Positions 130-3,100 of a stretch of DNA of 3,689 nucleotides are shown piece after piece. The stretch's first letter is position 1, and each line of letters opens with the position of its first letter. The translations under genes and the position numbers were made by a program. The stretch lies in assembly GCF_003334315.1 (NCBI RefSeq), contig NZ_QOWR01000103.1; one strand, given 5' to 3'. Source of the stretch: Escherichia coli (GTDB lineage Bacteria; Pseudomonadota; Gammaproteobacteria; Enterobacterales; Enterobacteriaceae). Below the pieces are notes generated by a model. The model saw only the letters and a program-made list of their open reading frames with translations, was not told where the DNA came from and did no database searches.

Positions 130-3100
130 ACTTCGGGCAACCCGGTAAATCCGCTGCTGGGGGCGAAGGTGCTGCCGGGCGAGACGGACCTTGCGCTGCC
201 CGGCCCGCTGCCGTTCATTCTCTCCCGCACCTACAGCAGCTACCGGACCAGGACACCCGCGCCGGTGGGAGTGTTTGGCCCCGGCTGGAAAGCGCCTTCT
301 GATATCCGCTTACAGCTACGCGATGATGCACTGGTACTCAACGACAACGGCGGGCGGAGCATTCACTTTGAGCCGCTGCTGCCGGGGGAGGCGGTGTACA
401 GCCGCAGCGAGTCAATGTGGCTGGTGCGCGGTGGTAAGGCAGCGCAGCCGGACGGCCACACGCTGGCGCGGCTGTGGGGGGCGCTGCCGCCGGATATCCG
501 GTTAAGCCCGCATCTTTACCTGGCGACCAACAGCGCACAGGGGCCGTGGTGGATACTGGGGTGGTCTGAGCGGGTGCCGGGTGCTGAGGACGTACTGCCA
601 GCGCCGCTGCCGCCGTACCGGGTGCTTACCGGGCTGGCAGACCGTTTCGGGCGGACGCTGACGTACCGGCGTGAGGCCGCAGGCGACCTGGCCGGGGAAA
701 TCACCGGCGTGACGGACGGTGCCGGGCGGGAGTTCCGTCTGGTGCTGACCACGCAGGCGCAGCGTGCGGAAGAGGCCCGCACCTCTTCGCTATCTTCTTC
801 TGACAGTTCCCGCCCTCTCTCAGCCTCAGCGTTCCCCGACACACTGCCCGGTACCGAATACGGCCCCGACAGGGGTATCCGCCTTTCGGCAGTGTGGCTG
901 ATGCACGACCCGGCATACCCGGAAAGCCTGCCCGGTGCGCCACTGGCGCGGTACACGTATACGGAAGCCGGTGAACTGCTGGCGGTATATGACCGCAGCA
1001 ATACGCAGGTGCGCGCTTTCACGTATGACGCGCAGCACCCGGGCCGGATGGTGGCGCACCGTTACGCGGGAAGGCCGGAGATGCGCTACCGCTACGACGA
1101 TACGGGGCGGGTGGTGGAGCAACTGAACCCGGCAGGGTTAAGCTACCGCTATCTTTATGAGCAGGACCGCATCACCGTCACCGACAGCCTGAACCGGCGT
1201 GAGGTGCTGCATACAGAAGGCGGGGCCGGGCTGAAACGGGTGGTGAAAAAAGAACTGGCGGACGGCAGCGTCACGCGCAGCGGGTATGACGCGGCAGGAA
1301 GGCTCACGGCGCAGACGGACGCGGCGGGACGGCGGACAGAGTACGGTCTGAATGTGGTGTCCGGCGATATCACGGACATCACCACACCGGACGGGCGGGA
1401 GACGAAATTTTACTATAACGACGGGAACCAGCTGACGGCGGTGGTGTACCCGGACGGGCTGGAGAGCCGCCGGGAATATGATGAACCGGGCAGGCTGGTA
1501 TCGGAGACATCGCGCAGCGGGGAGACAGTACGCTACCGCTACGATGACGCGCACAGTGAGTTACCGGCGACGACAACGGATGCGACGGGCAGCACCCGGC
1601 AGATGACCTGGAGCCGCTACGGGCAGTTGCTGGCGTTCACCGACTGCTCGGGCTACCAGACCCGTTATGAATACGACCGCTTCGGCCAGATGACGGCGGT
1701 CCACCGCGAGGAAGGCATCAGCCTTTACCGCCGCTATGACAACCGTGGCCGGTTAACCTCGGTGAAAGACGCACAGGGCCGTGAAACGCGGTATGAATAC
1801 AACGCCGCAGGCGACCTGACTGCCGTCATTACCCCGGACGGCAACCGGAGCGAGACACAGTACGATGCGTGGGGAAAGGCGGTCAGCACCACGCAGGGCG
1901 GGCTGACGCGCAGTATGGAGTACGATGCTGCCGGACGTGTCATCAGTCTGACTAACGAGAACGGCAGCCACAGCGACTTCAGCTACGATGCGCTGGACCG
2001 GCTGGTACAGCAGGGCGGCTTTGACGGGCGGACGCAACGTTATCATTATGACCTGACCGGAAAACTCACGCAGAGTGAAGATGAGGGGCTTGTCACCCTC
2101 TGGCACTACGATGCGTCGGACCGCATCACGCACCGGACGGTGAACGGCAACCCGGCAGAGCAGTGGCAGTATGACGGCCACGGCTGGCTGAGAGAAATCA
2201 GCCACCTGAGCGAAGGCCACCGTGTCGCTGTCCACTACGGCTACGACGATAAGGGCCGCCTGACGGGCGAACGGCAGACGGTGGAGAACCCGGAGACGGG
2301 GGAACTGCTGTGGCAGCATGAGACGAAACACGCCTACAACGAACAGGGGCTGGCAAACCGCGTCACGCCGGACAGCCTGCCGCCGGTGGAGTGGCTGACG
2401 TATGGCAGCGGTTACCTGGCGGGAATGAAGCTGGGCGGGACGCCGCTGGTCGAGTATACGCGGGACAGGCTGCACCGTGAGACGGTGCGCAGCTTCGGCA
2501 GCATGGCAGGCAGTAATGCCGCATACGAACTGACCAGCACATACACCCCCGCAGGCCAGTTACAGAGCCAGCACCTGAACAGCCTGGTATATGACCGTGA
2601 CTACGGGTGGAGTGACAACGGCGACCTGGTGCGCATCAGCGGCCCGCGACAGACGCGGGAATACGGCTACAGCGCCACGGGCAGGCTGGAGAGTGTGCGC
2701 ACCCTCGCACCAGACCTGGACATCCGCATCCCGTATGCCACGGACCCGGCGGGCAACCGGCTGCCGGACCCGGAGCTGCACCCGGACAGTACACTCACAG
2801 TGTGGCCGGATAACCGCATCGCGGAGGATGCGCACTATGTCTACCGCCACGATGAATACGGCAGGCTGACGGAGAAGACGGACCGCATCCCGGCGGGTGT
2901 GATACGGACGGACGACGAGCGGCCCCACCACTACCACTACGACAGCCAGCACCGCCTGGTGTTCTACACGCGGATACAGCATGGCGAGCCACTGGTCGAG
3001 AGCCGCTACCTCTACGACCCGCTGGGACGGCGAATGGCAAAACGGGTCTGGCGGCGGGAGCGTGACCTGACGGGGTGGATGTCGCTGTCGCGTAAACCGG

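Follow-up and report, generated by a model that had tools for sequence, protein, structure and literature searches.

An in-frame 447-nt deletion between short coding repeats in the Rhs core of Escherichia coli R18

The rhsD gene of Escherichia coli strain R18 lacks a 447-nt segment whose length equals the spacing between two copies of a 14-nt direct repeat in the intact gene, and one copy of the repeat is retained at the junction. In our reading, the repeat is a by-product of protein coding that very probably acted here as the substrate for a short-homology deletion of the RecA-independent type. This is an ordinary short-repeat deletion in a repeat-rich gene, by a known mechanism; what is new is one natural deletion instance together with a small set of sister alleles from the same core.

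The repeat was located in the window, that is, the whole 3,689-nt stretch of DNA that was analyzed. The exact 14-nt sequence, CGCTACCGCTACGA, starts at positions 1084 and 1531 (a spacing of 447 nt, or 149 codons) and extends to 17 nt, of which 16 are identical between copies. Copy 1 (CGCTACCGCTACGACGA; 1084 to 1100, plus strand) covers codons 362 to 367, and copy 2 (CGCTACCGCTACGATGA; 1531 to 1547, plus strand) covers codons 511 to 516. Both copies begin at codon position 1 of the one open frame, encode RYRYDD, and occupy the R-Y-x-Y-D position at the start of YD units in the Rhs core, copy 2 lying seven units after copy 1. A third, weaker copy of the motif (CACTACGGCTACGACGA; HYGYDD, two mismatches) was found on the plus strand at 2233 to 2249 and a further weak copy at 3004 to 3020; no tandem repeats were found in the window. 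Recomputation reproduced everything that the original prediction had said of the pair's coordinates, frame, exact (14-nt) and one-mismatch (17-nt) lengths, encoded hexapeptide, and 447-nt spacing. For illustration, a synonymous recoding of one repeat copy would be CGGTATCGTTATGAT.

The window is the 5′ core of an rhsD/E-type "RHS element core protein" gene (positions 1 to 3689, plus strand, codons 1 to 1229 in frame 1), and its frame 1 translation is a single, stop-free open frame of 1,229 codons. The translated protein matched the NCBIfam equivalog NF041261 (RHS_core) at 2,705 bits (cutoff, 2,000) over profile positions 1 to 1232 of 1261, and Pfam profiles placed DUF6531, multiple RHS_repeat matches, and RHS (PF03527) on it. 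YD (RHS) repeats were recognized by TIGR01643 in six stretches and by PF05593 in eight matches at E ≤ 0.001, with further weak ones. This is a typical Rhs core gene. The window ends shortly before the conserved core finishes: the Rhs-associated core domain (TIGR03696) is matched over positions 1 to 46 of 76 (43.6 bits), so that the window stops inside this domain, and the DPxGL aspartyl-protease motif, which marks the end of the core domain and is followed by the variable toxin tip, lies beyond it. In a near-identical allele, the core runs on as ...YITQDPIGLEGG... into the tip. The nearest solved relatives are type VI secretion system (T6SS) Rhs shells, among them Tse5 (8cp6) and Rhs1 (7q97), and by homology to these solved shells, a closed β-shell around a toxin and autoproteolysis are putative features of the window protein.

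E. coli 2017.04.03CC carries the window at 100% identity as the start of a 4,209-nt gene. The locus there has the order yncH-vgrG-rhs, with rhs directly 3′ of vgrG and located between yncH and ydcC. A vgrG gene is also found directly upstream of rhs in strains CP53, 214-4, and SCU-104, and no vgrG adjoins the rhsD locus of K-12 or R18.

The deletion was found with a 47-nt junction query (ACGCGGGAAGGCCGGAGATGCGCTACCGCTACGATGACGCGCACAGT) in which window positions 1064 to 1083 were joined to 1531 to 1557. Searched against 5,426 complete E. coli genomes, this query matched 4,424 places, exactly one of them at 47/47: NZ_CP186506.1, from strain R18, isolated from sputum in Taiwan (assembly GCF_049354865.1). 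Intact genes match only the left 34 to 41 nt of the query and thereby served as an internal positive control. The next-best matches, at 41/47, came from intact genes that carry a DDA variant following copy 1; one that was checked had both copies, at 1084 and 1531. In R18, the gene sits in the order ybbP-rhsD-ybbC, syntenic with K-12, and its coding sequence of 3,834 nt (4,281 − 447) is an open frame of 1,277 amino acids. Aligned to the window, it consists of positions 1 to 1083 followed by 1531 to 3689, with a single 14-mer at the junction. The missing interval is thus 1084 to 1530 on the plus strand (447 nt, 149 codons, seven YD units), with the breakpoint left ambiguous by the microhomology anywhere from 1084/1531 to 1098/1545. 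All 3,834 remaining positions are identical to rhsD of K-12 MG1655, with no indels, and the flanks differ at 3 positions in 8.5 kb. The parental K-12 rhsD has the 14-mer at both 1084 and 1531, and R18 has one copy, at 1084. This identity to K-12 rhsD outside the gap indicates that the deletion is evolutionarily very recent, intragenic, and free of any paralogue mosaic. The original prediction held that the repeat could bring about the in-frame loss of 149 codons, which the R18 gene supports; its expectation that variants lacking this segment would be absent was wrong, given one exact instance among the 5,426 complete genomes. The allele frequency of the deletion is about 1 in 4,400 to 5,800 gene copies.

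It may be that the R18 allele arose as a mutation in culture or as an assembly error. An artefact of assembly or sequencing, with the repeat being an inert by-product, would be in keeping with the rarity of the allele: one of 5,426 genomes, 0 of the 105 metagenomic rhs contigs that reach across the site, and a protein whose exact sequence is on record from the R18 assembly alone. The spanning contigs came from a pattern made of the left flank plus the repeat, which matched 110 metagenomic contigs; 107 were rhs, and the other three (L014, L059, and L111) were non-rhs chance matches. A degenerate junction pattern gave 0 matches in the same metagenome collection. The search of a 5.8-billion protein collection with a 106-aa junction peptide returned only fragments of 183 aa or less, those inspected being ordinary copy-2 regions, and this negative carries no weight because the R18 protein itself was not returned. 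Likewise, a scan of genome contigs for ATG followed by the repeat is uninformative on the deletion. It produced 11 matches: nine unrelated MRYRYD(D/E) peptides, a Pseudocitrobacter rhs gene without an exact second copy, and, in a "Lentisphaerae" MAG, an E. coli-like contig whose arrangement was the normal +447 one. Against an artefact stand the clean R18 locus, without a mismatch or indel over the whole gene and with 3 single-nucleotide polymorphisms in its flanks; a junction shaped exactly like that of a short-homology deletion of biological origin; and three analogous deletions that recur across several independent assemblies and metagenomes. In addition, a 14-nt repeat is shorter than assembler overlaps and k-mers, and its collapse during assembly is not expected. 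We consider an artefact highly improbable.

The anatomy of the R18 junction, with one copy kept and a deletion length equal to the repeat spacing, is that of classical short-homology deletion. The most probable course of events would begin with two YD units that both start R-Y-R-Y-D-D in preferred codons (CGC and TAC), giving rise to the 14-nt identity. Short-homology deletion would then act on the two copies, which are the closest spaced among the longer exact direct repeats of the core. In the course of replication, at the fork or in a gap that trails it, a nascent strand in which one copy had already been synthesized could mispair with the other, and the mispairing would result in loss of one repeat copy and the sequence between, 447 nt. 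Because the copies share codon phase and position within the YD unit, the product would be in frame and shorter by exactly seven YD units. In E. coli, deletion at short direct repeats is RecA independent, falls off steeply (exponentially) with distance, and is associated with replication, arising by slippage or by template switching in post-replication gaps (PMC7145654, PMC5426353); this RecA-independent deletion involves replication together with factors such as Uup, RadD, and exonucleases (PMC7145654). By analogy with these systems, we infer a RecA-independent pathway of slippage or template switching in R18. A reciprocal tandem duplication of the interval would be expected from template switching with crossover or from unequal sister exchange. 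A query for its junction gave no 47/47 match in the 5,426 genomes, which is no argument against simple slippage.

RecA-dependent recombination, either homologous or unequal, between YD units or rhs paralogues would instead place R18 among the products of the classical "rearrangement hot spot." Rhs cores are substrates for RecA-dependent unequal crossing-over, and partners are plentiful, with core-like sequence in 3,901 of the 5,426 complete E. coli genomes at a median of 6 places per genome. However, the R18 gene matches K-12 rhsD exactly both before and after the junction, with no paralogue mosaic, and its flanking genes are syntenic with those of K-12. The homology available for a crossover is also only 14 to 17 nt, with flanks at chance level, which falls below the roughly 20 to 30 nt that RecA/RecBCD exchange is usually said to need in order to be efficient. 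Such recombination therefore appears highly improbable as the source of the R18 allele, and short-homology deletion at the repeat is the reading that we carry forward.

The 14-nt repeat is a coding by-product of the YD motif and codon bias and very probably has no function of its own. Dinucleotide-preserving shuffles predicted 0.01 matches compared to 3 observed (with up to two mismatches), but such shuffles are the wrong null for a repeat protein; the relevant null keeps the protein fixed and permutes synonymous codons. Of 2,000 shuffles of the latter kind, 672 (34%) had a longest exact direct repeat of 14 nt or more. The sites at 1084 and 1531 themselves were identical over all 14 nt in 2% of shuffles, near the analytic expectation of 2.5% from the CGC and TAC usage of the gene. 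The longest exact repeat in the window is not the 14-mer but a 15-nt sequence, GCCGCAGGCGACCTG, at 676 and 1804. Maximal exact direct-repeat pairs of 10 nt or more number 58 in the window, and 44 of them are in frame (P = 4e-11), an excess that is the signature of coding repeats. Nine pairs reach at least 12 nt; the 14-mer pair is the second longest of these and by far the closest spaced, which fits its having been used.

The distribution of the repeat among 108 related alleles is consistent with a coding origin. The 14-nt pair is present in 84 of them, and in 17, site 2 reads CGGTATGCTTATGAT (RYAYD), with 2 nt in common with site 1. These 17 alleles with other codons at site 2 show that the DNA identity itself is not conserved; the copies are identical in nucleotide sequence because the gene prefers CGC and TAC codons. 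Together, the synonymous shuffles, the in-frame pairs, and the divergent alleles support the claim of the original prediction that the repeat is a by-product of YD architecture. We also considered the 447-nt spacing as a higher-order duplication of a seven-unit block and rejected it, since flank identity at the 447-nt offset (25/60 upstream and 19/60 downstream, with 25% expected by chance) is at chance level. The homology between the two sites is confined to the repeat itself.

Selection might alternatively have kept the repeat as a switch for resizing or inactivating the Rhs shell, a form of programmed, contingency-like variation. The occurrence of the pair in most of the related alleles would suit such a switch, as would a deletion that preserves the frame and removes whole YD units. 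Yet the other codons at site 2 show no sign of constraint on the DNA, the variant is as rare as given above, no reciprocal duplication was found in the 5,426 genomes, and codon bias alone yields such repeats in a third of shuffles. Moreover, the copies lie 447 nt apart and form no tandem array. A selected switch is exceedingly improbable, and a contingency or phase-variable locus was rejected on the absence of a tandem array and on the finding of one variant among thousands of gene copies.

The R18 event is one instance of a general pattern in this core. Besides the −447 allele (1084 to 1530, at the 14-nt repeat, in one genome), three other deletions were recovered. A −63 allele lacking one YD unit (1387 to 1449; 10-nt repeat CCGGACGGGC) was present in 6 genomes and 2 contigs, a −609 allele (93 to 701; 10-nt repeat CACCGGCGTG) in 25 to 32 genomes and 2 contigs, and a −123 allele (482 to 604; 11-nt repeat CGCTGCCGCCG) in 2 genomes exactly and 2 nearly. 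All three are in frame and keep one copy of their 10- to 11-nt repeat at the junction. Several genomes share the −63 allele, and several share the −609 allele. The −123 allele of SCU-104 is a clean in-frame loss in a gene behind vgrG, and one −609 allele also lies directly behind vgrG. A total of seven repeat pairs were tested; five were picked a priori, of which two were positive. The choice of the −63 and −609 pairs followed from deletions already noticed in contigs. Junction searches found no −1128 deletion at the 15-nt repeat (676/1804), no −528 deletion at a 12-nt repeat (665/1193), and no −237 deletion at an 11-nt repeat (1274/1511). Given these 15-, 12-, and 11-nt pairs without deletions, repeat length and spacing are not clean predictors in this sample. 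Large frameshifting gaps in contigs L043, L054, L084, L046, and L017 were not counted; they have 0 to 4 nt of microhomology and resemble contig ends, chimeras, or sequence that has diverged.

At the protein level, the deleted 149 residues (362 to 510) segment into seven YD-like units of 20 to 22 aa that sum exactly to 149, and since both breakpoints fall at the same position of the unit, the repeat register is preserved. On the R18 protein, NF041261 matches in two parts, of which the main one resumes at profile position 514 of 1261. The window protein aligns with Tse5 over the shell (E = 4.5e-115), and in this alignment residues 362 to 510 correspond to about Tse5 265 to 413, in the spiral β-sheet wall. 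This stretch of Tse5 holds Gln326, Glu328, Arg334, Trp355, Gly361, and Gly362, which anchor the N-terminal fragment (PMC10684867). With this stretch missing, the R18 protein would probably be impaired in enclosing a toxin. We infer that the shortened protein is tolerated because it is encoded at a K-12-like rhsD locus without an adjacent vgrG. The −447 deletion is rare and probably non-adaptive.

A more far-reaching possibility is that short-homology deletions which take out entire YD units in frame constitute a recurrent and tolerated resizing of a modular shell, with some shortened alleles (the −63, −123, and −447 alleles being candidates) still acting as T6SS effectors. We regard this as unlikely; if it were true, these genomes would supply a ready-made allele series for how many YD units a toxin cocoon needs. 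The natural shell-deletion alleles (minus seven units and minus one unit), along with two N-terminal deletions, could serve to probe how far the YD cocoon tolerates shortening. Annotation of such deletion alleles goes astray: R18 rhsD is labeled a "DUF4329 domain-containing protein," and one −609 allele is flagged as a pseudogene. The current understanding of Rhs systems and of deletion mechanisms is unchanged by these results, which offer a natural example of how protein repeats written in biased codons give rise to in-frame DNA microhomologies and, through these, to the occasional loss of whole units with the frame intact.

Three known systems come closest to the R18 allele. The window protein is homologous by sequence to the solved T6SS Rhs shells Tse5 (8cp6; PMC10684867), Rhs1 (7q97), and RhsA/Tre23 (7pq5). 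These shells are all full length, whereas the R18 form is short by seven YD units, and no natural or engineered shell minus seven YD units is characterized in the Rhs-shell literature examined. The rearrangements described by Jackson et al. in 2009 (PMC2935791) concern the same gene family and, as in R18, are driven by repetitive rhs sequence. In that work, rearrangement and C-terminal displacement proceed through kilobase-scale homology that a core shares with a core at another locus or with orphan fragments, and the outcome is a duplicated or deleted segment of the chromosome or an exchanged toxin tip (PMC2935791). In contrast, the R18 deletion is intragenic, covers 447 nt, and relies on 14 nt of homology inside one core; a term search of PMC2935791 brought up no in-frame core deletions, and the three uses of "deletion" there refer to loss of genes or fragments. 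A classical inter-locus Rhs crossover was rejected for R18, whose locus is syntenic and whose gene is K-12 rhsD on both sides of the junction.

The event belongs with the short-repeat deletions of E. coli, of which the spontaneous lacI deletions between short direct repeats reported by Albertini et al. in 1982 are said to be an example. As in those deletions, the segment lost from R18 is bounded by a short direct repeat of which one copy is retained, hundreds of base pairs are removed, and the homology is too short for efficient RecA-mediated exchange. Unlike deletions recovered in selection assays, the R18 event was found in a natural isolate, and RecA independence is assigned to it by analogy. 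A second difference from the short-repeat assays lies in the origin of the repeat: in R18 it arises from a protein motif, so that the deletion necessarily keeps the frame and takes out a whole number of structural units.

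Exact direct repeats of 10 nt or longer formed 58 pairs in the window (nt 1 to 3689), 44 of which had a spacing divisible by 3 (P = 4e-11). Each of the nine pairs with 12 nt or more was in frame, and deletions between the longer repeats therefore preserve the rhs reading frame. The window's longest exact direct repeat is the 15-mer GCCGCAGGCGACCTG (nt 676 to 690 and 1804 to 1818), which encodes AAGDL at two positions in frame and 1,128 nt apart; a deletion allele at this pair was carried by none of the 950 genomes with a match to the left flank.

Natural in-frame deletions were recovered at three shorter pairs. 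The largest, of 609 nt (window 93 to 701; retrieved loci L056, L083, and L117:4429-8076), lies at the 10-nt repeat CACCGGCGTG (nt 93 and 702) and removes codons 32 to 234, including the DUF6531 region. Between 25 and 32 complete genomes carried it, as did two contigs. In strain 1190, the gene with this deletion is preceded by tssBC-hcp-vgrG and is labeled by PGAP as a pseudogene "missing N-terminus," despite an open, ATG-initiated reading frame of 1,215 amino acids. A 123-nt deletion (window 482 to 604; locus L130:4040-8140) at the 11-nt repeat CGCTGCCGCCG (nt 482 and 605) was found in E. coli SCU-104 and Z1323CEC0012, both of which matched the junction query at 47/47 nt, while two further genomes matched at 45/47. 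The SCU-104 gene occupies the same locus as that of the window, is preceded by vgrG, and retains an open reading frame of 1,366 amino acids.

The third deletion, of 63 nt (window 1387 to 1449; loci L020, L069, and L116:3147-7352), removes exactly one YD unit at the 10-nt repeat CCGGACGGGC (nt 1387 and 1450) and was present in six complete genomes (three of MRE162, plus DAM, ANT, and VTB97584v) and two metagenomic contigs. The DAM rhsD gene additionally lacks 12 nt, corresponding to K-12 rhsD 1138 to 1149, and, relative to K-12, shows 21 differences on the upstream side of this gap and none on the downstream side. These one-sided differences may represent a conversion tract.

At the site of the second 14-mer (+447), 17 metagenomic loci of the same rhs subfamily carried CGGTATGCTTATGATAAT (RYAYDN), a second allele class that lacks the substrate for the 447-nt deletion. 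Both 14-mers, spaced 447 nt apart, were present in a 3.5-kb contig encoding an E. coli-type rhs core and labeled "MAG: Lentisphaerae bacterium" (JALHET010000378.1; L127), which is probably an enterobacterial contig misbinned into that MAG. The R18 allele with the 447-nt deletion (L001:5938-9771; NZ_CP186506.1) was named by PGAP from its toxin tip, as a "DUF4329 domain-containing protein" rather than RhsD. Compared with family model NF041261, the same allele scored 2,444 bits (cutoff, 2,000), with the match divided into two separate stretches.
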